From: an uncultured Actinomycetota bacterium
GTDB lineage: Bacteria > Actinomycetota > Actinomycetes > Streptomycetales > Streptomycetaceae
NCBI GenBank assembly: GCA_963820715.1
Contig: CAWGAU010000004.1
Span: 385,773-449,772, forward strand
Reading direction: 5' to 3'
DNA: 64,000 nt
This document shows, piece by piece, positions 5,354-35,496 of the stretch. The notes under the pieces are model-generated. The model was not told the DNA's origin. It saw only the letters and a program-made list of their open reading frames with translations, and searched no databases. The position numbers were made by a program, and so were the translations under genes. Every line of letters starts with the position of its first letter. The stretch's first letter is position 1.

Positions 5354-5369
5354 CGGAGAGCGCTCTCCG
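5354..5369. promoter_or_regulatory. perfect 16-bp palindrome CGGAGAGCGCTCTCCG (copy 1)
   Basis: It lies 46 bp downstream of the GH3 stop and 165 bp upstream of the methyltransferase start. An identical copy is at 9095-9110. Confidence 0.5.
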
Positions 5370-8985: not shown

Positions 8986-9094
8986 GGGCATCTCCTGGTG
9001 TGATGTCTGGTGCCGTCGCGGCTCGTCGCCCGGCCGGGCGGCCCCGCCGCTGAGGCTGGGGGGTGACTCGGACTCACAGGACCGGAAATCCGGT

Positions 9095-9110
9095 CGGAGA
9101 GCGCTCTCCG
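9095..9110. promoter_or_regulatory. perfect 16-bp palindrome CGGAGAGCGCTCTCCG (copy 2) in the divergent GH3/araB promoter region
   Basis: It is 110 bp upstream of the GH3 start (8985, minus strand) and 267 bp upstream of the araB start. It is flanked by the imperfect palindrome ACCGGAAATCCGGT. Confidence 0.5.
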
Positions 9111-11044: not shown

Positions 11045-11427
11045 GCCCCGCGCGGGCCGGCCCCCGCCCGCCGCCGGAGCGAGGGCCGGCCCGCGTCCGC
11101 CGCGGCCCTCCTCCGGCGGGTCCGGCCTGCTCATCGGCCCTGCGCTCGCCCCGCCGGTCCGCCCGTTCGCCGCCGTGCGTCCGCGCAACCGCCCCGCGCC
11201 GGCGCCCCGTTGATTGCCTGCTGCACGGGCCTTGTCAAAGCCGCGTCACGGCTCTTACGGTGTGGCCGCGAAAGAAAATGCTCGACTCTGTTTCATTACG
11301 TTGAATTGGCGTGCTGCGGGCCGTCGTCAGCCGGATCGATCGGCACAATTACGCACGCCTCATGGACCGACCTCGTCGCCGGTCCTGTTCTGTTCGGTTC
11401 TCCGACACCGCGAGCAGAGGAACCTCC

Positions 11428-13472
11428 ATGCCAAGATCCGTCCGCAGGCTGCTCGCCTGTGCGACCGCCGGCGCACTGTGGACCGGCGGCCTCGGCGCCG
11501 TCGCCGTGACCACCGAGGTGGCCGTCGCCGCGGCGCCCGCCGCGGCCCTCGACAACGGCCTGGCGCTGACCCCGCCGATGGGCTTCAACGACTGGAACGC
11601 CTTCGGCTGCAACGTCAGCGAGCAGCTCATCGAGCAGACCGCCGACTACCTGGTCAGCTCCGGCCTGAAGGACGCCGGCTACACCTACGTCAACATCGAC
11701 GACTGCTGGATGACGCACACCCGCGACGCCGACGGCAGCCTCGTCCCGGACCCGGTGAAGTTCCCCGACGGGATCAAGGGCACCGCCGACTACGTCCACT
11801 CCAAGGGCCTCAAGCTCGGCATCTACGAGGACGCGGGCACCGAAGACCTGCGCCGGGCTACCCCGGCAGCCTCGGCCACGAGACCACCGACGCGCAGACG
11901 TTCGCGGACTGGGGCGTGGACTACCTCAAGTACGACAACTGCAACAACCAGAGCGACGGCAGCCGCGCGGACTACGTCAACCGCTACACCGCGATGCGCG
12001 ACGCGCTGAAGGCGACCGGCCGCCCGATCGTCTACTCGCTGTGCGAGTGGGGCGCAGCAGAACCCGTGGGAGTGGGCCGGCGACGTCGGCAACTCCTGGC
12101 GCACCACCGGCGACATCAACGACACCTGGTCGAGCATGCTCAACATCGCCAAGCAGAACATGCCGCTGGCGGCGGACGCCGGGCCCGGGCCACTGGAACG
12201 ACCCGGACATGCTGGAGGTCGGCAACGGCGGCATGACCGACACCGAGTACCGCACGCCACTTCTCGCTGTGGTCGATGATGGACTCGCCGCTGCTCATCG
12301 GCACCGACCTGCGCAAGGCCACCCCGGCGACGCTGGCGATCCTCGGCAACAAGGACGTCATCGCCCTCGACCAGGACCCGCTGGGCTCGCAGGCCACCGT
12401 GGTCTCCTCCGACGGCGACGCGTACGTCCTGACCAAGCAGCTGGCCGACGGCGACCGGGCCGTCGCGCTGTTCAACGCGTCGCGACCAGGCCGCAGCGCA
12501 TCTCCACCACCGCCAAGGCCGCGGGCCTTCCGCAGCGCGGCAGCTACGCGGTGCGCGACCTGTGGAGCCACACCGACTACGACAGCGCCGGCACGCTGTC
12601 CGCGACCGTGCCCGCGCACGGCACCGTCCTGCTGCGGGTGAGCGGCAGCGCCGCCTCCGGCGCGGCGCGCCCTGCTCGACCCGCCGCTGCTCGACACCGG
12701 CGTGTCCAACGCGCCCGACCACATCGAGCCCGGCACGAGCGCGACGGTCGACACCTACGCCACCGACCTCGGCGCCCTGCCCGCCACCCGGGTCGGCGTC
12801 TCGCTCAGCGCCCCCGACGGCTGGACGGTCAAGGCCACCGGCGCCACCAGCGGCCTGGTGCTGCCCAAGGGCCACACGCTCACCACGCCCTGGACGGTCA
12901 CCGTCCCGGCCGGCACCAAGCCGGGCACGTACGCCCTGTCCGGCACGGTCGGCTACGACCAGCCGAGCGGGCGGCAGCCAGGTCACGCGTGCCGCTGGCG
13001 GGCAGCGTCACCGTCGAGGTGCCGCCGCCGTCCGGCACGAGCTACCTCAGCGACCTCGACTGGACCACGGCCACCAACGGCTGGGGGCCGGTCGAGAGGG
13101 ACCAGAGCAACGGTGAGACGGGGGCCGGCGACGGCAACCCGATCACCATCGGCGGCACCGTCTTCGCCAAGGGCCTGGGCACCAACGCGCCGAGCACCAT
13201 CACGTACTACCTCGGCGGCGGCTGCTCGACGCTGAGCGCGACCGTCGGCGTGGACGACGAGAAGAACGGCAAGGGCACGGTCGAGTTCGAGGTCGACGCC
13301 GACGGCACGCAGGTCGCCGACAGCGGAGTGCTGAAGAACGCCGACGGGCCCAAGCCGCTGCACGCCGACGTCACCGGCGCGCAGCAGCGTCCAGCTGATC
13401 GTCACCGACGGCGGCGACGGCAACGACAGCGACCACGCGGACTGGGCCGACGCCCAGGTCACCTGCTCCTGA
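11428..13472 (+). CDS. secreted alpha-galactosidase (GH27) with C-terminal carbohydrate-binding and NPCBM domains; multiple frameshifts
   Basis: Signal peptide [28 protein letters not shown]27 motifs: [66 protein letters not shown]: [26 protein letters not shown]...[33 protein letters not shown]. Ends ...VTCS. Confidence 0.85.
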
Positions 13473-13526: not shown

Positions 13527-13780
13527 CGTGCTGCCCAGGGCGGCGCCGGCGCCGGTGCGTGCCGGCTCAGCACGGGGCGCCGCGCCGCGGGCCCGCACCG
13601 TACGGGGGTTTCCGGCGGTCGGCCGGGTGATCCGCGCGGGTGTCACGCGGACGGAGTACACGGAGGGGCGCGACCTTCGGCGCCCGCGCCCTCCCGGCAC
13701 CTCCGTACGCCGCTACCCGAGCGGCCGACCGCGCCGTTGACTGGGAGTTCGGCCCCGACCCGGGAGCGCACATGACCAAC

Positions 13781-14613
13781 AGCCGTAAGCCCGAGACCCC
13801 GGCCTGCGACCAGGCAGCAGCCCCCCACGCGTCAGCCCTGCAGTCCCGACCGCCGCCGTCCACCGGTCGTCTTCGACGCGCCGTTCTCCGACCGCTCGGC
13901 CTGGGCGGTGGGCCGCACCTCCGCCTACCCGCCGGACGGCCGCAACCCCGGCGACAACAAGCTCGACCAGATCGGCCCGGCCTCCGCCCCCACCGCCGAC
14001 GGCGTCTTCCGCGCCCGCCGCACCCGGGACGGCCTGTGGCACGCCGACCTGGTGTCCACCGAGTACGCCCCCGGCGGCTTCGAGCTGCTCCCCGGGCGAC
14101 GAGCTGAGCGCGACCTGCCGGGTGGAGGACGTCCGGGGCGCCTGGCCCGCGCTGTGGACCTGGGGGCGCGACACCGACTCGGGCCGCCCGCAGCCCGGGC
14201 ACGGCGAGATCGACGCCTTCGAGTACCACCCGGACAACCCGCGGATGCTGGAGCTGACCAACCACGTCCGCCGCGCCGCCCGCTACGCCGAGGGCGCGGT
14301 CACCCCCGGGCGGCCGTTCGCGCTGCGGGTCGTGCTCGGCGTGGACAGCGTGGTGTGGGAGGTCGACGGCGCGCGGGTCTTCGCCGACGGCCGGGGCGTC
14401 GGCCCGTCCTGGCGCGCCTGGCCGGTGGTCGGCATCAGCGTCTCCGCGGGGGCGTACGGCCATCTGCCGCCGGACGCCGGGGTGCACGAACTGCGCTGGC
14501 AGTGCACGGAGTCTGACGGTCCGCCGCCCGGTCCTCGACCTGCCCCGGCAGCAGGAGCTGACCGCACCAGTGGCCCCGCCGGCCCCAACTCTTCTTTGGT
14601 CCAGACCTATTGA
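13781..14613 (+). CDS. GH16-like (concanavalin-like glycoside hydrolase) protein; frameshifted, ends uncertain
   Basis: EIDAFEY fits the GH16 ExDxxE catalytic motif. Conserved stretches: RTSAYPPDGRNPGDNKLDQIGPASAPTADGVFRARRTRDGLWHADLVSTEYAPGGFEL and GAWPALWTWGRDT...GHGEIDAFEYHPDNP. Confidence 0.5.
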
Positions 14614-14638
14614 CGAGTGGTCGAGACCACTTTACGAT
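14610..14638 (+). promoter_or_regulatory. chitinase promoter: -35 TTGACG (14610-14615), 17-nt spacer, -10 TACGAT (14633-14638); spacer contains a DasR-type dre box AGTGGTCGAGACCACT (14616-14631)
   Basis: The dre consensus is ACTGGTCTAGACCAGT. The core TGGTCGAGACCA matches with one central mismatch. Streptomyces chitinase genes are classic DasR targets. Confidence 0.6.
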
Positions 14639-14754
14639 CCCGACCATCACCGTGCGTGATCCTCCAGCTTCTCCAACTCACCCGGAGCCGGGCTGCCACG
14701 GCCACCCCCATCGGCTCGGTGGCCGCCGTGCCCGCCGCGGGAAGGGAGCACAGC

Positions 14755-15890
14755 ATGATCGGTCGGAGACTACGGGTAGTGGGGGTCGGCCTGACCCTGG
14801 CCGCCCTCGCCCAACTTCCGGTCGCCGCGGCCGTCCACGCCGCGGCCCCCGGCCCACGAGCGGCGGCCGGCCCGGCCCGGCCGCCGCCGCCGTCACCGCG
14901 CGCCGTCCCGCACACGACCGCCGCCGACACCTGCGCGATCAAGCCGCCGCCCCTCGGGCAAGGTGCTCCAGGGCTACTGGGAGAACTGGGACGGCGCCGC
15001 CAACGGCGTGCACCCGCGGCTCGGCTGGATCCCGATCACCGACAGCCGGATCGCCGCAGCACGGCTACAACGTCATCAACGCGGCCTTCCCGGTCATCCA
15101 GTCCGACGGCACCGTGCTGTGGCAGGACGGCATGGACACCGGCGTCAAGGTGGCCACGCCGGCCGAGATGTGCCAGGCCAAGGCGGCCGGCGCGACGATC
15201 CTGATGTCGATCGGCGGCGCGGCGGCCGGCATCGACCTCAGCTCCAGCGACCGTCGCCGACCGCTTCGTGGCGACCATCGTGCCGATCCTGAAGGCGTAC
15301 AACTTCGACGGCATCGACATCGACATCGAGACCGGCCTGATCGGCAGCGGCAGCATCAGCACGCTGTCCACCTCGCAGGCCAACCTGGAGCGCATCATCG
15401 ACGGCGTGCTGGCCCAGATGCCCGCCGAACTTCGGCCTGACCATGGCGCCCGAGACGGCGTACGTCACCGGCGGCAGCATCACCTACGGCTCGATCTGGG
15501 GCGCGTACCTGCCGATCGTCAAGAAGTACGCCGACAACGGCCGGCTGTGGTGGCTGAACATGCAGTACTACAACGGCAGCATGTACGGCTGCTCCGGCGA
15601 CTCGTACGAGGCGGGCACGGTGGCCGGGCTTCACCGCGCAGACCGACTGCCTCAACAAGGGCCTGGTCGTCCAGGGCACCACGATCAAGGTGCCGTACGA
15701 CAAGCAGGTGCCCGGCCTGCCGGCCCAGTCCGGGCGCGGGCGGCGGCTACATGACGCCGACCCTGGTCTCCCAGGCGTGGAACGCACTACGGCAGCGGCG
15801 CTCAAGGGCCTGATGACCTGGTCGCTCAACTGGGACGGCTCGAAGGGCTGGACCTTCGGCGACAACGTGAAGTCGCTGCAGGGCCGCTGA
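14755..15890 (+). CDS. secreted GH18 chitinase; frameshifted
   Basis: Signal peptide MIGRRLRVVGVGLTLAALAQLPVAAAVHA after RBS GGGAAGGGAG. GH18 motifs: GYWENWDG, NVINAAF, ILMSIGG, FDGIDIDIE (DxxDxDxE), WWLNMQYYN, LMTWSLNWD. Confidence 0.85.
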
Positions 15891-15924
15891 CACGGGGTGC
15901 CGTCCCCGTGCCGCCCGACGGGCG

Positions 15925-15981
15925 CCCGCCGACTGCCCTCGGCGGGCGCCTGCCGTGTTTCCCCGGACCGAACCGGGGAAA
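15925..15981. terminator. two consecutive GC-rich hairpins after the chitinase gene
   Basis: GGCGCCCGCCGactgccctCGGCGGGCGCC and TTTCCCCGGaccgaaCCGGGGAAA. Confidence 0.4.
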
Positions 15982-16118
15982 TGGGCGGGCGCCCGGGCGT
16001 CAGGTCCGCGCAAAGATCACGGCACCCGGTGCCAATAATCCGTATCCGACAGGCGCCTTGGCGCCCGTGAAGCCGCACCCTGGGAGTCCCGAACACCGTT
16101 CCGGCCCCAGGAGGGCGC

Positions 16119-17994
16119 ATGTCCGCAGCCGTCACCGAGCAGTCCCCGGCGCCGGAGGCCGCCGAACCTCCCGATACGGGCGCGGCCACCGACCGGCACC
16201 GGCTCACCGCGCTGCAGGGACTGGCCGCGCTCTCGCTGGACGCGATGGCGTCCGTGGCCTACGGGCCGGAGGCGATCGTCCTGGTGCTGGCCGCGGCCGG
16301 CGCGCACGGCCTCGGCTTCACCCTGCCGGTGACGCTGGCCATCGCCGCGCTGCTCGCCGTGCTCGTCGCCTCCTACCGGCAGGTGATCGCGGCGTTCCCG
16401 GACGGCGGCGGCTCCTACGCGGTCGCCAAGACGCCACCTCGGCCGCCGCACCAGCCTGGTGGCGGCGGCCTCGCTGATCCTGGACTACGTGCTCAACGTC
16501 GCGGTGTCCGTCACCGCCGGCGTGGCCGCGCTCACCTCGGCCTTCCCCGGGCTCTACGGCGACCGGGTGTGGCTGTGCCTGGCCGTGCTCGCCCTGGTCA
16601 CCGCGGTGAACCTGCGCGGCATCGTCGACTCCGCGCGCGGCCTTCATGTACCGACCGCCGTGTTCGTCGCGCTCGATCCTCGCGATCATCGTCGTCGGGC
16701 TCTTCCGCGTCCGCCCCCGCCGCCACGGCCGCCGCCGCACGGCCACGCCTCCGGTCGTCGCGGTCAACGCCACCGGCGTCGGCGCGCTGCTGCTGCTCAA
16801 GGCGTTCGCGTCCGGCTGCTCGGCGCTGACCGGCGTGGAGGCGGTGGCCAACGCGGTGCCGTCCTTCCGCGCCCCGCGCCGTGCGCCGGGCCCAGCGCAC
16901 CGAGGTCGCGCTCGGCGGCGCTGCTCGGCGTGATGCTGATCGGCCTGGCGGTGCTCATCGGCCGCTTCCACCTCCGGCCGGTGCGAGGGCGTCGACCGTC
17001 CTCGCCCAGCTCGCGGACGCCTCGCTCGGCCACAACTGGGCCTTCTACGTGGTGCAGTTCGCCACCGTGGTGCTGCTGGCGCCTGGCCGCCAACACCTCC
17101 TTCGGCGGGCTGCCGGTGCTGATGCGGCCTGCTGGCCCGCGACAACTACCTGCCGCACGTGTTCGCCCTCAAGGCCGACCGCCAGGTGCACCGCTACGGC
17201 GTGCTCACGCTCGCCGGCGATCTCCGCGGTGCTGCTGGTCGCCTCCGGCGGCGACACCAACACCCTCGTCCCGCTCTTCGCGATCGGCGTGTTCGTCGGC
17301 TTCACCATCTGCCAGATCGGCATGGTCCGGCACTGGCGCGCGCGAGCGGGTGCCGCGCTGGCGGCGCAAGGCCGCTGCTCAACGGCTTCGGCGCGGTGCT
17401 CACCGGCGTCGCGGCGGTCGTGGTGACCGGCGACGAAGTTCATGGAGGGCGCCTGGCTGATCGTCGTCGCGCTGCCGCTGCTGGTGGCTGGCCTTCGAGG
17501 GCGTGCACCGGGCGTACGGGCGGATCGGCGCAGCGCCTGGGCCTCGGCCGGATGCCCGGAGCCGCCGCACCGCGGACCGCTCGCTGGTCGTCGTGCCCGG
17601 TCGTCGACCCTGTCCCGGCTGACCAGCGAGGCGCTCACCGCCGCCGTCTCGCTCGGCGACGAGGTGCGCGCGGTGACCGTCACCCACCCCGAGGAGGACC
17701 GGCGGCGACCGAGGCGCTGCGCCGCGACTGGGAGCTGTGGCACCCGGGCGTGCCGCTGACCGAGCTGCCCTCCCCGCACCGCTCGCTCGGCCGGCCGCTC
17801 GACCGCGTACGTCCGCGCGCTCGCCGCCGAGCGACCCGGCACCCGGATCACCGTGCTCGATCGCCGAGGTCGAACCCGTGCACGTCTGGCAGCGGCTGCT
17901 GCAGAACCAGCGCGGCGCGGTCGTCGCCCACGCGGTACGCCGCGACACCGACGCCGTCGTGTGCCGGCTGCGGTTCCGCCTCAGGTCCCTGTGA
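16119..17994 (+). CDS. APC-superfamily permease with ~200-aa C-terminal cytoplasmic domain (KimA-like architecture; substrate unknown); several frameshifts
   Basis: RBS AGGAGG. TM core: ALSLDAMASVAYGPEAIVLVLAAAG...AVLVASYRQVIAAFPDGGGSYAVAKT and LVPLFAIGVFVGFTICQIGMVRHWRA. Soluble tail: ATEALRRDWELWHPGVPLTELPSPHRSLGRPL...VVCRLRFRLRSL. Confidence 0.75.
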
Positions 17995-18034
17995 GCCCTT
18001 TCCCGTGGGCCGCGCCGGGTACAGGCGTCAACGG

Positions 18035-18111
18035 CACGTCAAGAGGGCGACCGGCCGCGCCAGGAAAGCGTTAACGCGCTGGCCGCGAAACGGCCGGGTC
18101 GGCTTGCGTAG
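18035..18111 (+). promoter_or_regulatory. conserved leader blocks upstream of kdpD (A CACGTCAA; B CAGGAAAGCGTTAACGCG; C ACGGCCGGGTCGGCTTGCGTAGG)
   Basis: The same three blocks recur in the same order and orientation upstream of the kdpF operon (23566-23648). Confidence 0.4.
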
Positions 18112-18157
18112 GGAGTGATCACCACGGAACACCGGCTCGGCCCCTGGAGACACGTCC

Positions 18158-20716
18158 ATGTCCGACCTCACGGGCCGTCCCGACGGCGCCCGACCGCTGC
18201 GCCCCGGCCCCGGGCCGCCGCGGGCGCCTGAAGGTGTTCCTCGGCGCGGCCCCGGGCGTCGGCAAGACGTACCGGATGCTCGACGAGGGACGGCGCAGGG
18301 CGGAGCGCGGCACCGACGTGGTCGTGGCCTTCGTCGAGTGCCACAACCGGCCGCACACCCTCGCCCGGCTGGACGGCATGGAGATCGTGCCCCGGCTGGA
18401 ACGGGAGTACCGGGGCTCGTACTTCGGCGAGATGGACCTGGAGGCGGTGCTGCTCAGAAGCCCCCGAGGTCGCGCTCGTGGACGAGCTGGCCCACTCCAA
18501 CCCGCCCGGCGGCCGCAACGACAAGCGCTGGCAGGACGTCGAGACGCTGCTCGCCGCCGGCATCGACGTGGTCACCACCGTCAACATCCAGCACCTGGAG
18601 TCCGTCAACGACGTCGTCGAGAAGATCACCGAGGTCCCGCAGCGCGAGACCGTCCCCGACGAGGTGGTCCGCCGCGCCTTCCAGATCGAACTGGTCGACA
18701 TGCCCGCCGAGGCGCTGCGCCGCCGGATGGCGCACGGCAACGTCTACACCGCCGAGAAGGTGGACGCGGCGCTCGCCAACTACTTCCGGATCGGCAACCT
18801 GACCGCGCTGCGGGAGCTGGCGCTGCTGTGGGTGGCCGGGCGGGTCGACGAGGCGCTGCACAAGTACCGCACCGAGCACGGCATCGGCCGGGTGTGGGAG
18901 ACCAAGGAGCGGGTCGTCGTCGGCCTGACCGGCGGCGCCGAGGGCGACACGCTGATCCGCCGCGCGGCCCGCATCGCCGACCGCTCGGCGGGCGGCGACC
19001 TGCTCGCCGTGCACGTGGCGCGCAGCGACGGGCTGGCCGTCGGCGCCTCACCGGCCGCGCTCGCCCGGCAGCGGCAGCTCGTGGAGAGCCTCGGCGGCAG
19101 CTACCACTCGGTGGTCGGCGACGACGTGGCCTCCGCCCTGCTCGACTTCGCCCGCGCCAACAGCGCCACCCAACTGGTGCTGGGCACGAGCCGCCGCAGG
19201 CGGCTGGAGCGGCTGCTGACCGGACGCGGCATCGGCGAGACCACGGTCGGCAGCTCCGAGGACATCGACGTCCACATGGTCACCCACGAACGGGCCGGCG
19301 GCGGCCGGCTGCCGCCGTCGCGCCGCCGCACGCTGACCACCTGGCGGCTGATCGCCGGTCCTGTCGCCGGACTGGTGCTGCCGCTCGCGCTGACCGCCGT
19401 CCTCGCCCACAACCGCGGCAGCCTCAACCTCACCAGCGAGGCGCTGCTCTTCGTGCTCGCGATCGTCGGCGTGGCGTGCTTCGGCGGGGTGGTCTCCGCC
19501 GTCGTCGCGTCCGTGACCGCGTCCTTGCTGCTCAACTACTACTTCATCCCGCCGGTCGGCCAGTTCACCATCGCCGAGCCCAACAACATCCTGGCGCTCG
19601 CGGTGTTCGCGGTCGTCGCCGGCACGGTCGCGGCGGTCGTGGACCGCTCGCTGCGGCTGTCCCGGCGCGCGGCCCGGGCCACCGCCGAGGCCGAGACGCT
19701 CTCGTCGCTGGCCGGGAGCATCGTCCGCGGCGGCGACATCCTGCCCACCCTGCTGGAGCGCGCCCGCGAGACGTTCGGCATGGACAGCGCCGAACTCGCC
19801 CCCGCCCCCACGGGCGACGCCGCCGACGACGACTTCGCGGTACGGGTGCCGACCGGCGACGGCATGGTGCTCGAACTGCGCGGCCGCTCCCTGTCCGCCT
19901 CCGACCAGCGCGTCCTGGCGGCCTTCGCCGCCCACGTCTCCGCCGCCGCGGAACGGGCCAGGCTCGCCGAGGCCGCCGCCGAGATAGAGCCCGTCAAGGC
20001 CGCCGACCGGATGCGCACCGCCCTGCTCGCCGCCGTCAGCCACGACCTGCGCACGCCGCTGGCCGTCGGCTGGGCCGCCGTCAGTTCGCTGCGCAGCCAG
20101 GACGTGTCCTTCTCCGAGGAGGACCGCGAGGAACTGCTCGCCACCGCCGAGGAGTCGCTGGCCCGCCTCAGCCGGCTCGTCGACAACCTCCTCGACATGA
20201 GCAGGCTCCAGGCCGGCGCGCTCGCCCTGCAACTGCGGGCCACCACCCTGGACGAGGTGCTGCCCGCGGCCCTGGAGGCGCTGCCCTCCGACGCGCCCCC
20301 GGTCGACGCGGCCGGATCTGGAGGAGGCGCCCGCCGTACGCGCCGACCCGCCGCTGCTGGAGCGGGTCATCGCCAACCTGCTCAACAACGCGGTCCGGCA
20401 CGCCCCGCCCGGCCGGCCCGTCGTGCTGACCGCCAGCGCGCTGGGGGACCGGGTCGAACTGCGGGTGGTGGACCGCGGCCCCGGGCTGTCCGCGCAGGAC
20501 CGCGAGCGCGCCTTCGAGCCCTTCCAGCGGATGGGCGACAACGACAACAGCACGGGGCTCGGCCTCGGACTCGCCCTGGCCCGCGGGCTGACCGAGGCGA
20601 TGCACGGCACCCTCACGCCTGAGGACACCCCTGGAGGAGGACTGACCATGGTGCTGTCCCTGCCCGCCGCGGTGGACGCGCGGCCGCCCGAACTCTGCGA
20701 GGGGATCGGATCGTGA
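18158..20716 (+). CDS. kdpD: K+-sensing histidine kinase KdpD (KdpD N-domain + USP + TM + HisKA/HATPase); 3 frameshifts
   Basis: KVFLGAAPGVGKTYRMLDEGRRRAERGTDVVV, TVNIQHLESVNDVVEKIT, H-box AVSHDLRTPL, N-box IANLLNNAVRHA, G-box DRGPGL...GLGLGLAL. Confidence 0.9.
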
Positions 20717-21396
20717 CGTGCGTACTGGTCGTGGACGACGACTCCCCGATGCTGCGGGTGATCGGCGCGGGCCTGCGCTCGTACGCCTTCGCGGTGGTCA
20801 CCGCCTGCGACGCCGGCACGGCGCTGGACCTCGCGGCCAAGCGGCGGCCCGACGCGGTGCTGCTCGACCTCGGACTGCCCGACCTCGACGGCCTCGACGT
20901 GCTGCGCTCGCTGCGCGCCTGGACCAGCGTGCCCGTCCTCGTCGTCTCCGGCCGCACCGGCGTCTCCACCCGGGTCGCCGCGCTCGACGCGGGCGCCGAC
21001 GACTACCTCACCAAGCCCTTCGCCCTGGAGGAACTCGCCGCCCGGCTGCGGGCGGTGCTGCGCAGGCCCGCCCTGCTGGAGCCGCCGGAACGGGTGGAGG
21101 TCGGCCCGCTCACCGTGGACCTGGGCACCTACCGGGTCAGCCGTGCGGACCGGGAGGGCGCCGACATCCACCTCACGCCGACCGAGTGGCGGCTGCTGGC
21201 CGTCCTGCTGCGCAACCCCGAGCGGCTGGTCACCGGCCGGGAGCTGCTCACCGAGGTGTGGGGCCGCGAGTACGTCAAACGCACCAACTACCTGCGGATC
21301 TACATGGCCGGCCTGCGGCAGAAGCTGGAGCCCGACCCGTCAGCGCCCCGCCATCTGATCACCGAACCGGGGCTCGGATACCGCTTCCAGCCGTAG
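20713..21396 (+). CDS. kdpE: OmpR-family response regulator KdpE (intact), 4-bp overlap with kdpD
   Basis: [16 protein letters not shown]...[14 protein letters not shown]...[23 protein letters not shown]...[33 protein letters not shown]. Confidence 0.9.
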
Positions 21397-23372
21397 CCCG
21401 CGGCGCCCGCACACGCGCTCAGCCCGCGTGCACCCGCGGCCGCAGCGGCCCGGTCCGGCTCGGCCTCGCGCAGCACCTCGCGGGTGACCGGCGCGACCTC
21501 GCCCTGCCCGAAGAGGAAGAACCGCAGGAAGTTCGCGAACGGGTTGCCCTCGGTCCACTCGAAGTAGATGTGCGGGGTGCAGCCGGTGGTGTCGCGGACG
21601 TGCAGCAGCAGCGCGGCCAGCGCGTTGGGGATGGAGGAGCTCTCCACCGTCAGCACCCGGTAGCGGCCGTGCATCACCTGCCCGCGCACGGTCAGCGCCG
21701 TCTCGAACTCCGACGGGTCCAGCACGGTCACCTCGACGAAGACCAGGTCGTCCTCGGCCGGGATGTCGTTGTCGGTACGGATCTGCCGCACCTTGTCGCG
21801 GTACTCGGCCTCGTCGCGGCGGTCCGGCTCGTTGGCGATGAAGCGCACCTTGCGGCTGGCCACGTCGCGCACGAACCGCTCCGCCATGCCGTCCAGCCGC
21901 ACGTCGGTGACCCGCAGCTCGAAGGCGCGGGCGAGCCGGGACAGCAGGGACACCAGGATGATCCCGGCGATGAAGCAGGCGCCGATCTTCACACCGTCGG
22001 GCCGCTCGAGCGATGTTGACGACCGTGGTGTAGAGGAAGACCACCGCGATGACGCCGAAGCCGATCGCCCAGTTGCGCTGCCGGGCCCGGCGGGCGGAGA
22101 TCGTCACGGCGATGGCCGCGGAGCTCATCAGGACCAGCACACCGGTGGCGTAGGCGCCGCCCTGCTTGTCGACGTTCGCGTCGAAGATCCAGGTGACCAG
22201 GAAGGCCGACCAGGGTGAAGACCAGCACCATCGGGCGCACCGCCCGCGCCCAGTGCGGCGCCATGCCGTAGCGCGGCAGGTAGCGCGGCATCAGGTTGAG
22301 CAGCCCGGCCATCGCGGAGGCGCCGGCGAACCACAGGATGGCGATGGTGGAGAAGTCGTAGACCGTGCCGAAGGCCGAGCCGAGGTACTCGTGCGCGAGG
22401 AAGGCCAGCGCGCGCCCGTTGGCCGGGCCGCCGGTCTGGAAGTCCTGCTTCGGGATGAGCACGGTGGTGATGAAGCTGGTCGCGACGAGGAAGACGCTCA
22501 TGATCAGGGCGGCCGTCGTCAGCAGCTTCTTGGTGTCCCGGATCCGCCCGGCGGGGTTCTCCTCGGTGTCGCCCGGGTCGCCCTGCACGTGCGGCATCAC
22601 CGCGACGCCGGTCTCGAAGCCGGACATGCCCAGCGCCAGCTTCGGGAAGATCACCAGGGACACGCCGATCATCACGAAGACGTTGCCGCGCTCGGCGGTC
22701 AGCGCCGTGCGACCAGTCGGTGACCAGGTGCGGGGCGGACGACCACCTGCCAGAGGCCGTCCACGACCACCACGACGTTCAGCGCCAGGTAGATCGCCGA
22801 CCAGCACCACCGCGACGCCGATGGCCTCCAGGAAGCCCTTGAGGAAGACCGCGCCGAGCAGCGCGACCAGCAGCAGCGTGATCAGCATCTGGTGGCCGTG
22901 CCAGAGCGCTGGCGAAGTGCGGGTTCTCGGTCAGGTGGGTGGAGGCGTCGGCCGCGGACAGGGTGATCGTGATCAGGAAGTCGGTCGCCGCGAAGCCCAG
23001 CAGCGTCAGGACGAAGAGCTTGCCCTTCCAGAAGGACAGCAGCCGCTCCAGCATCGCGATCGAGCCCTCGCCGCGCGGGCTCTCCTCCGCCACCCGCCGG
23101 TAGACCGGCAGCGCCCCGGCCAGCGTCACGATCACCAGCACGACCGTCGCGATCGGGGAGAGCAGTCCGGCGGCCAGGGCCGCGATGCCCGGCTGGTAGC
23201 CGAGGGTGGAGAAGTAGTCGACGCCGGTCAGGCACATCACCCGCCACCAGCGCTGCCCGCGGTGCGCGGGCTCGGCCGGCTTCACCGCCTGTCCCGGCCG
23301 CGGCCGGCCCATGTCCGACAGGCCCTCCAGCAGCCATGCCCGCAGGCGGTTGGTCGGGGCCTCGGCGGTCAC
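21300..23372 (-). CDS. second APC-superfamily permease with C-terminal cytoplasmic domain (paralogous architecture to 16119-17994); frameshifted; 3' end uncertain
   Basis: Start GTG at 23372 after RBS AGGAG ([22 protein letters not shown]...). TM segments: [53 protein letters not shown]. Soluble tail: [42 protein letters not shown]. Confidence 0.7.
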
Positions 23373-23565
23373 ACGTCTGCTCCTGTCCGTGCGGCGGTCT
23401 CTCCGTCCGCGGCGGCGCGCGCTCCGTACCGGCGGCAGGCCGTACGGGCACCCCCGGCAGGGCGGAATCCGGCCATCGCGGCGACGGCGAGGCAAGCGTA
23501 CGCAACCGGCCCGCGACCGGTCGGGGCAGGGGCGCCGCGACACGCGGCCATGTCCGCATCAAGAC

Positions 23566-23648
23566 CACGTCAAAGCCGCCGGTGGCCGCGTCAGGAAGGC
23601 GCTAACACGGACGGCGGTACGGGCACGGCCGGGTTTGTCTTGGTGAGG
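23566..23648 (+). promoter_or_regulatory. conserved leader blocks upstream of the kdpF operon (A CACGTCAA; B CAGGAAGGCGCTAACACG; C ACGGCCGGGTTTGTCTTGGTGAGG)
   Basis: Same blocks as the kdpD leader. Confidence 0.4.
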
Positions 23649-23732
23649 CCGACCTGTGAAGCGTCGGCGCCGGCCGCCCGACCGAGGGCGGGCGGCTTCG
23701 ATCTCCTCTGACCGTCCGGGGTGTGCCTTCCC

Positions 23733-23816
23733 ATGCCAGACCTAGTTTTCGTCGCCGTCACCGTCGTCGTGTTCGCCGTCATCGGCCTGGTGGCCAAGGG
23801 GGTGGAGCGGCTGTGA
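23733..23816 (+). CDS. 27-aa single-TM peptide MPDLVFVAVTVVVFAVIGLVAKGVERL, stop overlapping kdpF start (ctGTGAgc)
   Basis: Found by manual reading; too short for the ORF track. It is hydrophobic. The GTGA start/stop overlap with kdpF suggests translational coupling. No clear Shine-Dalgarno sequence. Confidence 0.35.
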   Translation: MPDLVFVAVTVVVFAVIGLVAKGVERL

Positions 23817-23902
23817 GCGCTGAAAACGTCGTCGGACTCGTCGTTGCCGTGGCCCTGGTCGGATACCTGGTGCTGGCACTGATCCACCCGGAGAAGTTCT
23901 AG
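23813..23902 (+). CDS. kdpF: KdpF subunit (29 aa) VSAENVVGLVVAVALVGYLVLALIHPEKF
   Basis: Matches mycobacterial and actinomycete KdpF (...VGL.IA.AL..YL..AL..PEKF). Its stop overlaps the kdpA GTG start. Confidence 0.7.
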   Translation: MSAENVVGLVVAVALVGYLVLALIHPEKF

Positions 23903-25568
23903 TGAACGACACCCTCGCGGGCTGGCTCCAGATCATCGCCCTGCTGGGCGTGCTGGCGCTGTCCTACCGGCCGCTGGGCGACTACATGGCCCACGTCCTG
24001 ACCTCCCCCAAACACTGGAGCGTCGAGCGCTTCCTCTACCGGCTCGGCGGGGTGGACGGCGAAGCCGACCAGCGCTGGCCGGTCTACCTGCGCAGCGTCC
24101 TCGCCTTCTCCGCCGTGTCCGTGCTCTTCCTCTACGCCTTCCAGCGGCTCCAGAGCCACCTGCTGCTGTCCGTCGGCATGAAGGCGGTGCCGCCGAACAC
24201 GGCGTTCAACACCGCGACTTCCTTCGTCACCAACACCAACTGGCAGTCGTACTCGGGTGAGTCCACGATGGGCCACCTGGTGCAGATGGCCGGGCTCGCG
24301 GTGCAGAACTTCGTGTCGGCCGCCGTCGGCATCGCGGTCGTCGCCGCCCTGATCCGCGGCTTCACCCGCAGGCGCACCGACCGCGTCGGCAACTTCTGGG
24401 TGGACCTCACCCGGATCGTGCTGCGCGTCCTGCTGCCCATGGCCTTCGTCTTCGCGATCATCCTGGTCGCGGGCGGCGCCGTGCAGAACTTCCACGGTGT
24501 GCAGTCGCTCTCCACGATCGCCGGCGACCACCAGAGCCTCACCGGCGGGCCGGTCGCCTCGCAGGAGGCGATCAAGGAACTCGGCACCAACGGCGGCGGC
24601 TTCTACAACGCCAACTCCGCGCACCCCTTCGAGAACCCCAACGCGTTCACCAACATCCTCGAGATCTACATGCTGCTGGTGATCTCCGTCTGCCTGCCGC
24701 GCACCTTCGGCAAGATGGTCGGCGACAAGCGCCAGGGCTACGCGATCCTCGCGGTGATGGGCCTGATCTGGGCCGCGTCGGTGGCGGCCATCACCGTCAG
24801 CGAACTGCACAGCTTCCACAGCGCGGCGGGCCACGCGGCCGGCGGCATGATGGAGGGCAAGGAACAGCGGTTCGGGATCTGGGGTTCGGCGCTGTTCGCC
24901 GTCGTCCACCACGCTGACCTCGACGCGGCGCCGTCAACTCCTTCCACGACTCGTTCTCGCCGCTCGGCGGCGGAACGACGATCTTCAACATGATGCTGGG
25001 CGAGATCGCGCCCGGCGGCACCGGCTCCGGGCTGTACGGCATCCTCATCCTGGCGATCATCACGGTCTTCGTGGCCGGTCTGATGGTCGGCCGCACCCCG
25101 GAGTACCTGGGCAAGAAGCTCGGCGGCCGGGAGATGAAGTTCGCCTCGCTCTACATCCTCACCACCCCGGCGATCGTGCTGGTCGGCGCGGGCGTGGCGA
25201 TGGCGCTGCCAGGTGAGCGGGCGAACATGCTCAACACCGGTGCGCACGGCTTCTCCGAGGTGCTGTACGCCTTCACCTCGGCCGCGAACAACAACGGTTC
25301 CGCGTTCGCCGGTATCACGGTGACCTCCAACTGGTGGAACACGGCGCTGGGCCTGGCGATGCTGCTGGGCCGCTTCCTGCCGATGGTGTTCGTGCTGGCC
25401 CTGGCCGGTTCGCTCGGCAGACAGCAGCCGGTACCCGCCACCGCGGGCACCCTGCCCACCCACCGGCCGCAGTTCGTCGGCCTGCTGACCGCGGTGGTCA
25501 TCATCGTCGTCGGTCTCACGTACTTCCCCGCGCTCGCGCTGGGTCCGCTCGCGGAAGGTCTCCACTGA
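23902..25568 (+). CDS. kdpA: K+-transporting ATPase subunit A; frameshift ~24900-24990
   Basis: [33 protein letters not shown]...[11 protein letters not shown]...[19 protein letters not shown], then second frame ...[29 protein letters not shown]... Confidence 0.9.
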
Positions 25569-27711
25569 TGTCGTCCCTGACCACCCTCGAACCCCCCGTC
25601 ACGCCGGGGGACTCCCCGGAGCCGCCCGAGCGGCACCGGATCTCCGGCGGCATGCTCGACCCGAAGCAGCTCCTCACGTCGCTTCCGGACGCGTGCCGGA
25701 AGCTCGACCCCCGGACGATGGTCAAGAACCCGGTCATGTTCGTGGTCGAGGTCGGCTCGGTGCTGACCACGCTGTCCGCGATCAAGGACCCGAGCGTCTT
25801 CGCCTGGGTGATCACCGCCTGGCTCTGGCTCACCGCGATCTTCGCCAACCTCTCCGAGGCCGTCGCCGAAGGACGCGGCAAGGCCCAGGCCGAGACGCTG
25901 CGCAAGACCAAGACCGACACCCTCGCCCGGCGGCTCGCCGACTGGCGGCCCGGCGACACGCACTCCCGCGAGGAGTCGGTGCCCGCCGCCGAACTGCGGC
26001 TGGCCGACCACGTGGTGGTCGAGGCCGGGCAGGTCATCCCCGGTGACGGCGACGTCGTCGAAGGCGTCGCCTCGGTGGACGAGTCGGCGATCACCGGCGA
26101 GTCGGCCCCCGTCATCCGCGAGTCCGGCGGCGACCGCAGCGCGGTGACCGGCGGCACGAAGGTGCTCTCGGACCGGATCGTCGTGAAGATCACCTCGAAG
26201 CCGGGCGAGACGCTTCATCGACCGGATGATCGCGCTGGTCGAGGGCGCGTCGCCGGCAGAAGACGCCGAACGAGATCGCGCTGAACATCCTGCTGGCGTC
26301 GATGACCATCATCTTCCTGCTGGCCGTCGTGACGCTCCAGCCGTTCGCGATCTACGCGGGCGCCGAGCAGACCATCGTGGTCCTGGTCGCGCTGATGGTC
26401 GCGCTGATACCGACCACGATCGGCGCCCTGCTGTCCGCCATCGGCATCGCGGGCATGGACCGGCTGGTGCAGCGCAACGTCCTGGCCATGTCCGGACGCG
26501 CCGTCGAAGCGGCGGGCGACGTCAACACCCTCCTGCTCGACAAGACCGGCACCATCACCCTCGGCAACCGCCAGGCCGCCGAGTTCCTGACCGCGGACGG
26601 CATCTCCATCGAGGAGTTGGCGGACGCCGCCCAACTGTCGTCGCTCGCCGACGAGACCCCCGAAGGCCGCTCCATCGTGGTGCTCGCCAAGGAGCGCTAC
26701 GGCCTGCGCGGCCGTCCCGAAGGCACCCTGGGGAACGCCGAGTTCGTCCCCTTCACCGCGCAGACCAGGATGAGCGGCGTCGACCTCGTCGAGGACGGCG
26801 ACCACCGCAGCCTGCGCAAGGGCGCCGCCACCGCCGTCATGCAGTGGATACGCGAGAACGGCGGCCACCCCACCGAGGAGGTGGGCCCGATGGTCGACGC
26901 CATCGCGGCCGCCGGCGGCACCCCGCTGGTCGTCGGCGAGGTCGTCCGCCGCGACGGGGACACCACCGCCACCGTGCTCGGCGTGATCAACCTCAAGGAC
27001 GTCGTCAAGGCCGGCATGCGCGACCGGTTCGACGAGCTGCGCCGGATGGGCATCCGCACCGTGATGATCACCGGCGACAACCCGATGACCGCCAAGGCCA
27101 TCGCGGACGAGGCGGGCGTGGACGACTTCCTCGCCGAGGCCACGCCCGAGGACAAGATGGCCCTCATCAAACGCGAGCAGGAGGGCGGGAAGCTGGTCGC
27201 GATGACCGGCGACGGCACCAACGACGCGCCCGCGCTGGCCCAGGCGGACGTCGGCGTGGCCATGAACACCGGCACCTCGGCCGCCAAGGAGGCCGGGAAC
27301 ATGGTGGACCTGGACTCCAACCCCACCAAGCTCATCGAGATCGTGGAGATCGGCAAGCAACTCCTCATCACCCGAGGGGCGCTGACCACCTTCTCCATCG
27401 CCAACGACGTCGCCAAGTACTTCGCGATCATCCCCGCGATGTTCGCCGGCGTCTACCCGGGCCTGCACCACCTCAACATCATGGGTCTGCACAGCCCGAC
27501 CTCGGCCATCACCTCCGCGATCGTCTTCAACGCGCTGATCATCGTCGCGCTGATCCCGCTCGCCCTGCGCGGTGTGCGCTACAAGCCGTCCTCGGCCTCG
27601 GCGCTGCTCAGCCGCAACATCTGGGTGTACGGCCTGGGCGGACTGGTGCTGCCGTTCGTCGGCATCAAACTCATCGACCTCGTCGTGCAGTTCGTCCCCG
27701 GTCTGAACTGA
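25567..27711 (+). CDS. kdpB: K+-transporting P-type ATPase subunit B; two single-base insertions (~26213, ~26253)
   Basis: [47 protein letters not shown]. The conserved [25 protein letters not shown] is recovered only by deleting the C at ~26213 and the C at ~26253. Confidence 0.9.
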
Positions 27712-27727
27712 GAAAGGTCACGTCATC

Positions 27728-28334
27728 GTGCGCAACTACCTGGCGGCCCTGCGAATGCTGCTGATCCTCACCGTCGTGACCGGCGTGGCCTATCCGCTGC
27801 TGGTCACCGGCGTCGCCCAGGCGGCGTTCTCCCACCAGGCCGACGGTTCACCGGTCAAGAAGAACGGCACCACCGTGGGCTCCAGCCTGATCGGCCAGAA
27901 CTTCGACCTGCCGAAGAAGAACCCCGCCGACGCCGACGAGGCGGCCAGGCCCGACCCCGGGTTCTTCCAGCCCCGCCCGTCCGCCGGCGACTACGACCCG
28001 CTCGCCAGCGGTGCGTCCAACCTGGGGCCCAACGACCCCACGCTGGTCAAGACCGTCAAGGAGCGCCGCGCCGCGGTCGCCGCCTTCGACGGGGTCGACC
28101 CGAAGGACGTGCCCGCCGACGCGGTCACCGCCTCCGGCTCCGGCCTCGACCCGGACATCTCCAAGGCGTACGCGGCCGAGCAGGTCGACCGCGTCGCCAA
28201 GGTCCGCGGGCTGAGCGCCGCGACCGTCCGCGGCCCTGGTCTCCGACAACACGCACAGCCGCTCGCTGGGCTTCCTCGGCGAGCCGTACGTGAACGTCGT
28301 CGACCTCAACCTGGCGCTGTCCAGGCTCAAGTGA
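27728..28334 (+). CDS. kdpC: K+-transporting ATPase subunit C; frameshift ~28230
   Basis: MRNYLAALRMLLILTVVTGVAYPLLVTGVAQAAF...ASGASNLGP...SGSGLDPDIS. C-terminus in another frame: ...NTHSRSLGFLGEPYVNVVDLNLALSRLK. Confidence 0.85.
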
Positions 28335-28427
28335 CGACGTTCACATGACCGACCGGCCCGTACCGCCGGCGGTGCGGGCTCCCCCCTGCGCCGCCGGCGG
28401 ACCGGGCCGCGGAAAGGGAGGGCCGGC

Positions 28428-29108
28428 ATGAGCCGAGTGCTCGTCGTCGACGACGAACCGCAGATCGTCCGGGCGCTGGTGATCAACCTGCGCGCCCGGC
28501 GGTACGAGGTCGACGCCGCCCACGACGGGGTCACCGCCCTGCGGATGGCCGCCGACCGGCACCCGGACGTCGTCCTGCTCGACCTCGGCCTGCCCGACAT
28601 GGACGGCGTCGACGTCATCACCGGGCTGCGCGGCTGGACCCGGGTGCCGATCATCGTCCTGTCCGCCCGCCACGCCTCCGACGAGAAGGTCCAGGCGCTC
28701 GACGCGGGCGCCGACGACTACGTCACCAAGCCGTTCGCCATGGACGAACTCCTGGCCCGGATGCGCGCCGCCGTCCGCCGCGCCGACGCGGGCCCCGACC
28801 CCGAGACCTCCACCCTGGAGACCGCGTCCTTCACCGTCGACCTGGCCGCCAAGAAGGTCAACAAGGACGGCACGGACGTCCGCCTCACCCCCACCGAGTG
28901 GCACCTGCTGGAGGTCCTCACCCGTAACGCGGGCCGCCTGATCAGCCAGAAGCAGCTGCTCCAGGACGTGTGGGGCCCCGGCTACGGCACCGAGACCAAC
29001 TACCTGCGGGTGTACATGGCGCAGCTTCGCCGCAAGCTCGAAGCCGACCCCACCCGGCCGCGGCACTTCATCACCGAGCCGGGCATGGGCTACCGGTTCG
29101 AGCCGTGA
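28428..29108 (+). CDS. kdpE: second KdpE-type response regulator (intact), no kinase gene follows it
   Basis: RBS GGAAAGGGAGG. MSRVLVVDDEPQIVRALVINLRARRYEV...NYLRVYMAQLRRKLEADPTRPRHFITEPGMGYRFEP. This is closer to canonical KdpE than the copy at 20713. Confidence 0.9.
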   Translation: MSRVLVVDDEPQIVRALVINLRARRYEVDAAHDGVTALRMAADRHPDVVLLDLGLPDMDGVDVITGLRGWTRVPIIVLSARHASDEKVQALDAGADDYVTKPFAMDELLARMRAAVRRADAGPDPETSTLETASFTVDLAAKKVNKDGTDVRLTPTEWHLLEVLTRNAGRLISQKQLLQDVWGPGYGTETNYLRVYMAQLRRKLEADPTRPRHFITEPGMGYRFEP

Positions 29109-32944: not shown

Positions 32945-33142
32945 GTGCGGGTCCGCGCCGGGGCACGGTGGTGATCACGGCCAGTGCTGTGGACACTACT
33001 GCGAACCGGCGCCGCGGCGCTCAAGCCCCGGCGGTGTCCTCGCGGTCGTGGAACGGCTGCCCCGGCGGCCCCCGGCTACGCACCTGCCGCCTGCCGCCTG
33101 GCGCCGAGACCCGGCCGATCGCGTACGGCCCGGGGCCCGGGG

Positions 33143-34929
33143 CGGCTCACAGGTCCAGCACGGTGTCCCGGGCGGGCCGTGAGCAGCAGATCAGCGCGCT
33201 GCCGGCGGCGACCGGTTCGACGGGCTCGGGGTCGTAGGCGACCTCGCCGGACAGCAGCCCGGTGACGCACGTCTGGCACACGCCCGTACGGCAGGACCAG
33301 CGCACCGGCACGTCGCACGCCTCGGCCAGCTCCAGCAGGCTCCCGCCGCCCGGACCGCCACGGCACGGTGAGCCCGCTGCGGACGAAGGTGACGGCCGGA
33401 CCGGTGCCCGCCGGGCCGTCCGGGGCGTGCGGCGCGCGGGCCGCCGTCCCGGCGGCGATACCGGGGGTGAGGGCGGGGCCCGCGCCGAAGACCTCGCTGC
33501 GGATGCGCTCGGGCGGCAGCCCGCACCCGGCCAGGGCGGCGCCGACGTCGCTCATGAAGGCGGTCGGCCCGCACAGGTACGCCTCCGCGTCGGCGGGCAG
33601 GCCCAGACCGGACAGCAGCGCGCCGTCCAGGTGCCCGGTGTCGGTGTAGTCGGCGCCCCTGCGGTCCTGCGGGCGCGGCCGGCTGTAGCAGATCCGGGCC
33701 CGGCCGCGGGGGAGCCGCGCGAGCAGGCGCCGGCTCTCCTGCGCGAAGGCGTGGTCGGCCCCGTCCCGCGCCCCGTGCAGCCACCACACCTCGCGCCCCG
33801 AGCCGGCGTCGGCCAGCGCGGCCAGCATCGCCAGCACGGGCGTCGCGCCGACGCCCGCCGAGGCGAGGACCACCGGCGCCGGCGAATCGGCCGCCAGGGT
33901 GAAAGTGCCGCGCGGAGCCGCCGCCTGCAGGCGGTCGCCCACCTCGACGCGGGAGTGCAGCAGCGTGCTGGCCGCGCCCCGCTCCTCGCGCTTGACGCTG
34001 ATCCGGTACTGCTCGCCGCCCGGCCGGCCGGACAGGGAGTAGCTGCGTACGAGCGCGCCCCGCCCGGGCTCCGCGTCCAGGCGCACGGTGAGGTACTGGC
34101 CGGGGGCGGCCGCGGGGAGCGCCGCGCCGCCGGGGTCGGCCAGCCAGAAGGAGACGATGCCGCGGCTCTCCGGCTGGACGCGGGTCACCGTCAGCGGCCT
34201 GAAGCCCGGCCACGCCGGGCTCGGCTCGGCGGCCCGGGAGTTGAGCCCGGCGTTGCCCGCGGCGCCGTCCGTCCGGTCGGCCGGTCCCAGCAGGGCCTCG
34301 AACGAGGCGCGCCAGCCGGGGCTGAGGGCGTCGATGCGCAGGGCCGCCGCGATCCGGTCGGCGGGGTGGCCCGGCCGGTACAGCAGCGCGTCGATGTCGG
34401 CGACGGTCATCCGGCCGGGCCCCTCGGCGACCTTGACGATCTCCTGCCCGGCCTCGACCTCGCCCTCGTCGAGCACCCGGAAGTAGAAGCCAGGGCGTCC
34501 GTGGGCGACCAGCAGCGCGGGCATGCGCGGCTCGTCCATCCGCAGGCCCACCCGGTAGCACGTCACCCGGGGCTGGGTGACCTCGAAGACCGCGCCGCCG
34601 ATCCGGTAGCGGTCGCCGACGCACACCTCGTCGTCCGGCAGGCCCTCCACGGTGAAGTTCTCGCCGAACTGGCCGTGCGTGAAGTCCGAGCGGCCCAGCT
34701 CCTGCTGCCAGTACCGGTAGGAGTCGAGCTGGTAGACCATGACGGCCCGCATCTCGCCGCCGTGGCCCGCCAGGTCGCCCTGGCCGTCCCCGTCGACGTT
34801 GACCCGCCCGACCATGCGCGGGCCGGTCACCGGGCGCTTCCAGATGCCCGTGCGCACCGTCCGCCCGCGCCAGGAGACGTCCTTGGGCAGGCCGACGTTG
34901 ACCGAGACCAGCCTGCCCGCGACGCGCAT
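33143..34929 (-). CDS. MOSC domain protein fused to FNR-like FAD/NAD-binding and 2Fe-2S ferredoxin domains; frameshift ~33350
   Basis: MOSC: MRVAGRLVSVNVGLPKDVSWRGRTVRTGIWKRPV...VGDRYRIGGAVFEVTQPRVTCYRVG. FNR-like: RVEVGDRLQAAAPRGTF...VLASAGVGATPVLAML. 2Fe-2S recovered in another frame: TGVCQTCVTGLLSGEVAYDPEPVEP...LICCS. Confidence 0.8.
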
Positions 34930-35061
34930 CGCCCATCCTCCGGGTCTCGCCCCCGCGTGATGCGACCCAGGCTATCCGCGCCCGCCCCCCGGGGCCTCGC
35001 GTCAGGCTCGGCCCCGGGGTGTCCCAGAGGGGTGTCCCAGCGGGGTGCCCCAAGGAGCGCC

Positions 35062-35496
35062 TCAGGCGGGGACGGACGCCACGAAGGTGACGCAGAAGGC
35101 CACCACCGCGCCCATGAAGGCGAGGGTGAACAGTGCCTTCGCCTCGTTCGCCACCCCGCCCGGGGCTATCGCGGTGGCTCGGTGCGGACGGGCCGCGGTG
35201 TAGTGCACCACCACGATGTCGCCCTCCAGGACGGTGGCCGGCCCGCCCTTCTCCTCGAAGCGGACGGTCCGCCCGTCGCGGGGCGTGAACTCGTACACGT
35301 GGTGCTGGGTGCTGCCGGTGCTCCGGCCCTCCGTGTCGCGGTTCTGCGTGGTGTACGCCCGCAGGCAGCGGGCCTCCGCGGTCAGACCGCTGCGCCACGC
35401 GAGCCGCAGCTCGACCGTCCGCCGCACCACCCCGAAGGCGATGCACAGCGCCGTGACCGCGATCAGCGCCGGCACCGCATAGAACATGGCTGTCAT
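35062..35496 (-). CDS. DUF3592 membrane protein (intact)
   Basis: Two flanking TM helices around HHVYEFTPRDGRTVRFEEKGG...GDIVVVHY. Confidence 0.7.
   Translation of the reverse strand: MTAMFYAVPALIAVTALCIAFGVVRRTVELRLAWRSGLTAEARCLRAYTTQNRDTEGRSTGSTQHHVYEFTPRDGRTVRFEEKGGPATVLEGDIVVVHYTAARPHRATAIAPGGVANEAKALFTLAFMGAVVAFCVTFVASVPA

Follow-up and report, generated by a model that had tools for sequence, protein, structure and literature searches.

The segment from 14595 to 14638 of the 64,000-nucleotide stretch of actinobacterial DNA analyzed here (the window) is most probably the core promoter of a secreted GH18 chitinase gene, with two 16-bp DasR-responsive elements (dre) arranged as a tandem operator. 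The downstream element, box B, occupies the spacer between the -35 and -10 hexamers and had been singled out in the original prediction; the upstream element, box A, runs into the -35 hexamer itself (Table 1). The flagged element proved to be real, but it is only half of a pair, the stronger partner just upstream having been missed. The paired dre chitinase promoter is an already known arrangement, described since the 1990s and met here in a new genome, and the finding is an ordinary one because paired boxes are well known and are conserved across Streptomyces relatives. It allows the chitinase gene to be assigned to the host's chitin/GlcNAc (DasR) regulon with the promoter fixed to the base, and its importance beyond annotation is small.

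Table 1. Coordinates of the two boxes, the promoter hexamers and the chitinase gene in the window
Feature	Position	Strand	Sequence	Basis or remark
Box A, dre-like	14595-14610	+	TTTGGTCCAGACCTAT	Top weight-matrix score in the window
-35 hexamer	14610-14615	+	TTGACG	Read from sequence and consensus scan
Box B, dre-like	14616-14631	+	AGTGGTCGAGACCACT	Fills the promoter spacer
-10 hexamer, TAnnnT type	14633-14638	+	TACGAT	Read from sequence and consensus scan
Ribosome-binding site	14740-14748	+	GGAAGGGAG	6 nt 5' of the ATG; read from sequence
GH18 chitinase gene, secreted, without carbohydrate-binding module	14755-15890	+		Pfam PF00704, tblastn

Across the promoter the window reads ...CTTCTTTGGTCCAGACCTATTGACGAGTGGTCGAGACCACTTTACGATCCC..., and both direct reading of the sequence and a consensus scan bear out the claim that a dre-type box lies between TTGACG and TACGAT with 17 nt separating the two hexamers. 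The spacer consists of AGTGGTCGAGACCACT plus one T, and box B ends one base 5' of the -10 hexamer, while the final T of box A is also the first T of the -35 hexamer. Boxes A and B start 160 and 139 nt upstream of the chitinase ATG, respectively, and their centers are 21 bp apart. In a consensus scan of positions 14300-16200, the TTGACG-17-TACGAT combination was the sole promoter-like site, where shuffled sequences lead one to expect 0.1. The hexamers have the form of a housekeeping promoter of the HrdB/sigma-70 type, that is, TTGACN and TAnnnT located 16-18 nt apart, and this form is kept in relatives. Judging from the position of the -10 hexamer, transcription would start at about 14644-14646. 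The promoter shows no indels when compared to its intact relatives, and the spacings agree; further downstream, the sequence GAAGGGAGCA(C/G)AGCATG is kept in four homologous loci (L008, L027, L081 and L082).

The possibility of an RNA element in the leader was dropped because the 5' leader folds no better than shuffled sequences (z = -0.99). A search of positions 14400-14900 against Rfam returned nothing credible, the sole match being a chance snoRNA with E = 0.49. An inverted repeat, ATCAC-CGTGC-GTGAT, is found at 14646-14660, right at the predicted transcription start, and is kept in L081 and L082 with one change in the loop. This repeat could form a hairpin at the 5' terminus of the mRNA or could be a further protein site.

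Box B departs from the literal dre consensus ACTGGTCTAGACCAGT at three positions and so matches it at 13 of 16, rather than at the 14 of 16 first reported; the published degenerate consensus, A(G/C)TGGTCTAGACCA(G/C)T, accepts 15 of its 16 positions. The core had also been described as fully palindromic. This description is right for the 7-nt arms, AGTGGTC and GACCACT, which form a perfect inverted repeat, but it fails for the central GA, which is not self-complementary. A search with the consensus alone, allowing three mismatches, is expected to give 0.10 matches per window, and at least one match was found in 10 of 100 shuffles. Because this consensus-only evidence for box B is weak, a symmetrised weight matrix was built from 40 distinct S. 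coelicolor dre sites that have ChIP and/or EMSA support (Table 1 of PMC4398421), and these training sites score between 17.0 and 25.4.

Box A scores 23.2 with this matrix, above the median of the 40 validated sites. Box B scores 17.5, inside the validated range as a DasR site should, although it would rank only third to sixth lowest among the 40. The third-best site in the entire window scores 8.55 with an AT-weighted background, and a uniform background leaves the order unchanged, with 18.8 for box A, 15.5 for box B and 9.17 for the third-best site; the claim that the window holds no other comparable dre can thus be retained. The number of sites expected by chance in 64 kb is 0.0007 at the level of box A and about 0.034 at the level of box B. 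A similar picture emerged from 82 related loci, where the 109 kb of chitinase upstream zones contain 108 matches scoring at least 17 and the 450 kb of flanking DNA outside those zones contain none. Both boxes are therefore 16-bp near-palindromes with scores in the validated range, and they are located upstream of a gene for chitin/GlcNAc utilization, the GH18 chitinase. The significance of box B comes from the weight matrix, from the presence of box A 21 bp away and from the conserved arrangement described below, and the consensus by itself would make only a modest case. One further exact match to the core TGGTCNAGACC occurs inside coding sequence at 28044-28054 (TGGTCAAGACC), and was rejected as a dre because, taken over all 16 positions, it stays under a score of 6.

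Box A has the half-sites TTGG-TCCAGA-CCTA, with GG doublets flanking a 6-nt center, and box B has the half-sites GTGG-TCGAGA-CCAC, both of them perfect and likewise with 6 nt between the GG doublets. Box A also contains the classical 12-bp chitinase repeat, TGGTCCAGACCT, at 14597-14608, and box B contains TGGTCGAGACCA at 14618-14629, which is identical to that repeat at 10 of 12 positions and lies 21 bp away in the same orientation. The promoter region accordingly carries two copies of about 12 bp that resemble TGGTCCAGACCT. Just 5' of box A, the sequence CCCCAAC(T/C)C (14583-14591) is shared by the window and the loci L008, L012, L081 and L082, and some paralogous promoters (L002, L006, L052 and L057) have a further full dre 15-16 bp upstream of box A. 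The sequence at 14583-14591 may be a decayed third box, and does not score as a dre on the weight matrix.

Conservation was assessed at 80 homologous loci, obtained from one scan of a genome collection with the chitinase. A dre scoring at least 12 is found upstream of the gene in 74 of these loci, and at least two dre within 32 bp of each other are found in 43, with most of the pairs exactly 21 bp apart. Box A is present in the same orientation in 64 of the 80 loci and is directly continued by TTGAC in every one of the 64; the complete TTGACG occurs in 59 of these promoters, and a TAnnnT hexamer is located 17 nt from the -35 in 37. A box scoring at least 12 at the +21 offset is found in 38 loci, and 17 loci combine all parts of the layout: box A, the -35 hexamer, box B and, 17 nt from the -35, a TAnnnT hexamer. 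The -10 hexamer of the window, TACGAT, is identical in L081, L082, L006 and L008. Promoters that lack box B, which belong mostly to paralogs with an N-terminal binding module, retain the -35 hexamer and a -10 of the TACGAT type, and this conservation of the hexamers independently of box B supports the promoter call. The nearest relatives of the window, L081 and L082, are metagenome contigs that are syntenic with it, the chitinase gene standing between the gene for a 258-residue protein and kdpD. They read TTTGGTCCAGACCTATTGACGGGTGGTTGAGACCACTTTACGATCCC across the promoter, with an identical box A and with both hexamers and the register unchanged. The combination of an invariant box A/-35 junction with an optional box B appears from these comparisons to be something that is not already textbook. 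A comparative table of these promoters may help in modeling dre sites, since it records box A as always fused to TTGAC, box B as optional at +21, and a lineage variant in which box B has a G in its center.

The central G is at position 8 of box B, where the matrix column contains only T or C and G is seen in none of the 80 symmetrised validated sites; box B reads GTGGTCGAGACCAC, and the common form is AGGTCTGGACCA. L081 and L082 carry GGTGGTTGAGACCACT at the place of box B, which differs at two positions and retains the central G, arguing that this base is a feature of the lineage and not a sequencing error. This small variant is likewise not already textbook. A useful comparison is provided by NagR of Bacillus subtilis, a homologous repressor of the GntR/HutC family, which was crystallized on an operator (GTGGTCTAGACCAC) that matches the 14-nt core of box B except for one base in the center. 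Bacillus belongs to a different phylum, and the natural sites of its NagR are not palindromic and control nag genes. The structure of NagR on DNA shows that, in each half-site, only GTGG (positions -7 to -4) is recognized in a base-specific way: two arginines read the two guanines, the wing enters the minor groove at G-7, and over the central six bases the protein touches only the backbone. The arginines that contact DNA in NagR are conserved and essential in DasR. Because GTGG-N6-CCAC is intact in box B and only one central base differs from the crystallized operator, we expect that box B would bind DasR, possibly more weakly than a consensus site.

The gene downstream of the promoter encodes, when reconstructed, a chitinase of 371 residues that is 87-91% identical to annotated chitinases of Actinacidiphila, Streptomyces and relatives and resembles solved bacterial family-18 chitinases; its closest homologs come from Actinacidiphila and Streptomyces. 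The claim that a dre is located in the core promoter of a GH18 chitinase gene thus holds up on the weight matrix, on the Pfam match and this level of identity, and on the layout kept in relatives. The reading frame as it stands in the window is broken. Alignment to four orthologs revealed eight one-base insertions (14946, 15056, 15250, 15428, 15626, 15732, 15786 and 15797) and no deletions, and tblastn gave 90-97% residue identity in the stretches between the breaks. Furthermore, third-position GC and the translations show frame switching every few hundred bases across the whole window, which suggests an insertion-biased, unpolished and error-prone assembly. A pseudogene was rejected as the main reading because the breaks are exclusively one-base insertions, identity between them is 90-97%, and the frame switching extends throughout the window. 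The frequency of one-base insertions calls for caution with gene calls and with single-base features in this DNA.

In the work of Delic 1992, Miyashita and Fujii 1993, and Ni and Westpheling 1997, the repeats of Streptomyces chitinase genes are reported to overlap the -35 and -10 regions. Short repeats of this kind attracted notice as soon as chitinase promoters were sequenced, and expression becomes deregulated when they carry point mutations; specific binding to the repeats has been shown for DasR alone, and they were then renamed dre (PMC6097792). The chitinase genes of S. plicatus and chiA of S. lividans have paired repeats of the TGGTCCAGACCT type within the promoter, as does the window, and these genes are chitin-inducible and glucose-repressible (PMC6097792). 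A close parallel is chiJ of S. coelicolor (SCO2503), where the dre pair cttggtccagacctct (at -99) and aaaggtctggaccaca (at -78) shows the same 21-bp spacing as the window and where the promoter was bound by DasR in four ChIP-on-chip experiments (PMC4398421). The core of box A in chiJ is also the same as in the window, TGGTCCAGACCT, and Streptomyces loci with the chiJ pattern (e.g. L035 and L060) likewise have TTGACG between the boxes. A difference is found downstream of box B, where the chiJ-like Streptomyces group has GAGCACTGTCATGCC... and the window has TACGAT at 17 nt. From promoter similarity alone, we infer that the window gene may be orthologous to chiJ. Other S. coelicolor genes (chiD, chiH, chiI, SCO6345 and SCO7225) have dre pairs 16-22 bp apart that are bound by DasR in EMSA (PMC4398421).

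The dre of the nag, pts and das genes share the 16-bp motif and the regulator family with the window and are likewise located near or inside core promoters; nagE2, for example, has two, at -49 and -32 (PMC4398421). GlcN-6-P and GlcNAc-6-P release DasR in vitro (PMC6167110). GlcNAc induces the nag, pts and das genes, and mutation of dasR clearly derepresses them; for the chi genes, by contrast, the inducer is chitin or chitobiose, GlcNAc is repressing, and deletion of dasR has a different effect (PMC6167110).

The best-supported model of the tandem operator begins with a DasR ortholog of the GntR/HutC family, which would bind each box as a dimer by way of the GG doublets in the half-sites. Since the centers are 21 bp apart, corresponding to two helical turns, both dimers would lie on the same face of the DNA, where they would cover the -35 region and the spacer up to one base before the -10 hexamer. 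The bound dimers would keep RNA polymerase out until a chitin-derived signal appears. GlcNAc-6-P or GlcN-6-P, formed from imported chitobiose or GlcNAc, would then bind to the effector domain of DasR and lower its affinity for DNA, and the resulting release would free the promoter. The sequence, its geometry and rarity, the identity of the gene and the conserved layout are observed directly, and DasR as the binding protein, repression as its action and these compounds as its ligands are proposed by homology. A dasR gene is assumed from taxonomy to be present in the genome; no GntR/HutC gene was recognized by eye in the translated 64-kb window. The promoter is probably also subject to further controls that are specific for chitin or depend on glucose, as are other chi genes of Streptomyces, where inputs such as induction by chitobiose and repression by glucose must be at work too.

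The layout had been called textbook repression geometry. The geometry itself is as described, but the phrase is an oversimplification, in that the chi genes of S. coelicolor reportedly require DasR to reach maximal expression (PMC6167110). In the same organism, DasR is still bound at chi dre sites after the addition of GlcNAc in minimal medium (PMC6167110), and a dasR mutant shows only minor changes in chi transcripts (PMC6097792). These three observations contradict simple repression for the chi genes of S. coelicolor. In Saccharopolyspora erythraea, on the other hand, the chi genes are repressed by DasR (PMC6167110).

How much of the regulation depends on box B can be asked from its history in related genomes. 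At its place, L081 and L082 have an element scoring 11.2 and Actinacidiphila polyblastidii (L027) has one scoring 5.1, while A. acidipaludis (L008) and the paralogs with carbohydrate-binding modules have none; to judge from these sequences, box B is clearly the less constrained of the two boxes. It could be that box A works alone, with a single DasR dimer at the -35 and with box B as a weak or decaying copy, a reading that gains from this degradation or loss in close relatives, from the unprecedented G at position 8 together with the low rank among validated sites, and from roughly 26 homologous promoters that have box A without box B at +21. We consider it unlikely nonetheless. The GTGG/CCAC half-sites of box B are perfect, its odd base falls in the center, where NagR makes no base-specific contacts, and poorer validated sites are known to be positive in EMSA, such as aatggtccgaaccatt with a central CG (PMC4398421). 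In addition, L081 and L082 still show the +21 register together with the GAGACCACT half, and a strong box persists at the +21 offset in the 38 loci already mentioned. That the resemblance to dre arose by chance in an intergenic region might be argued from the consensus matches in shuffled windows, but its probability is close to nil: sites expected only 0.0007 and 0.034 times per 64 kb stand 21 bp apart before a chitinase gene, the 450 kb of control DNA has no match, and the layout is kept in dozens of genomes. The comparative data have in effect already refuted chance resemblance.

The remaining alternatives keep both boxes and change the protein or its mode of action. DasR might be an activator or a dual regulator, with box A centered about 42 bp upstream of the predicted start in a class-II-like position and box B repressing from near -21. 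Its requirement for maximal chi expression and its continued presence on chi dre in the presence of GlcNAc in S. coelicolor (PMC6167110) are in line with this, and the pattern seen, a box A/-35 junction that is invariant in 64 of 64 promoters and a box B that is optional, is the one expected if contact with RNA polymerase were strictly positional. The junction may equally reflect shared ancestry and overlapping constraints, and the -42 figure is an estimate from the predicted transcription start; moreover, the deregulation caused by point mutations in the repeats is the behavior of an operator (PMC6097792), and in Saccharopolyspora erythraea DasR represses the chi genes (PMC6167110). On balance an activating or dual role is quite improbable here, although the invariant junction and the optional box B leave some room for it. 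The more specific proposal, that the fusion of box A to the -35 lets DasR touch and activate RNA polymerase in the class II manner while box B at about -21 represses, is a speculation with slightly poorer prospects again. If it were true, one protein would switch chitinase promoters on and off according to the box occupied, and this would account for a paradox of long standing: DasR occupies sites within the core promoters of chi genes, although S. coelicolor requires it for their full expression. Finally, the boxes might be read mainly by a regulator other than DasR, either a chitin-specific factor or another GntR/HutC paralog. Other regulators of chitinase genes have been proposed (Reg1, Cpb1 and the ChiS/ChiR system), and the chi changes in the dasR mutant transcriptome are minor (PMC6097792), but specific binding to the repeats has been shown by EMSA and ChIP for DasR and for none of the others (PMC6097792, PMC4398421), and both boxes score as typical dre sites. 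We regard this reading as very improbable, and continue to favor a tandem operator for DasR.

Several features of the surrounding DNA were recorded along the way. The perfect 16-bp palindrome CGGAGAGCGCTCTCCG occurs twice, at 5354-5369 and at 9095-9110; one lies close to where a GH3-like gene of the minus strand begins and the other is upstream of a sugar-kinase/alpha-galactosidase block, with the genes in both cases read by eye. A second palindrome, GACCGGAAATCCGGTC, at 9080-9095, adjoins the copy upstream of the sugar-kinase/alpha-galactosidase block. CGGAGAGCGCTCTCCG resembles an operator of the LacI family, and is probably the other palindrome system to which the original prediction referred. 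The gene block upstream of the promoter includes an alpha-galactosidase (Melibiase_2) at about 11200-12500 and ends with an NPCBM domain (Pfam PF08305) at 13231-13430. Between this block and the promoter, the gene at about 13640-14561 has a 258-residue homolog in L081 without a Pfam family, and its product resembles, by eye, a concanavalin-like/GH16 fold.

Downstream, the window differs in spacing from its relatives. In the syntenic metagenome contigs (L081, 2625-2784), a gap of about 160 nt separates the chitinase gene from the start of kdpD, whereas in the window the two genes are about 2.3 kb (about 15900-18200) apart. This segment appears to encode a membrane permease-like protein, and the fragment tested had no Pfam match. 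Reading by eye, the region at about 17900-29100 contains a kdpD/kdpE pair followed by kdpA, kdpB, kdpC and a second response regulator, and the minus strand at about 33000-35500 contains a gene for a Dyp-type peroxidase beside an encapsulin-like gene.
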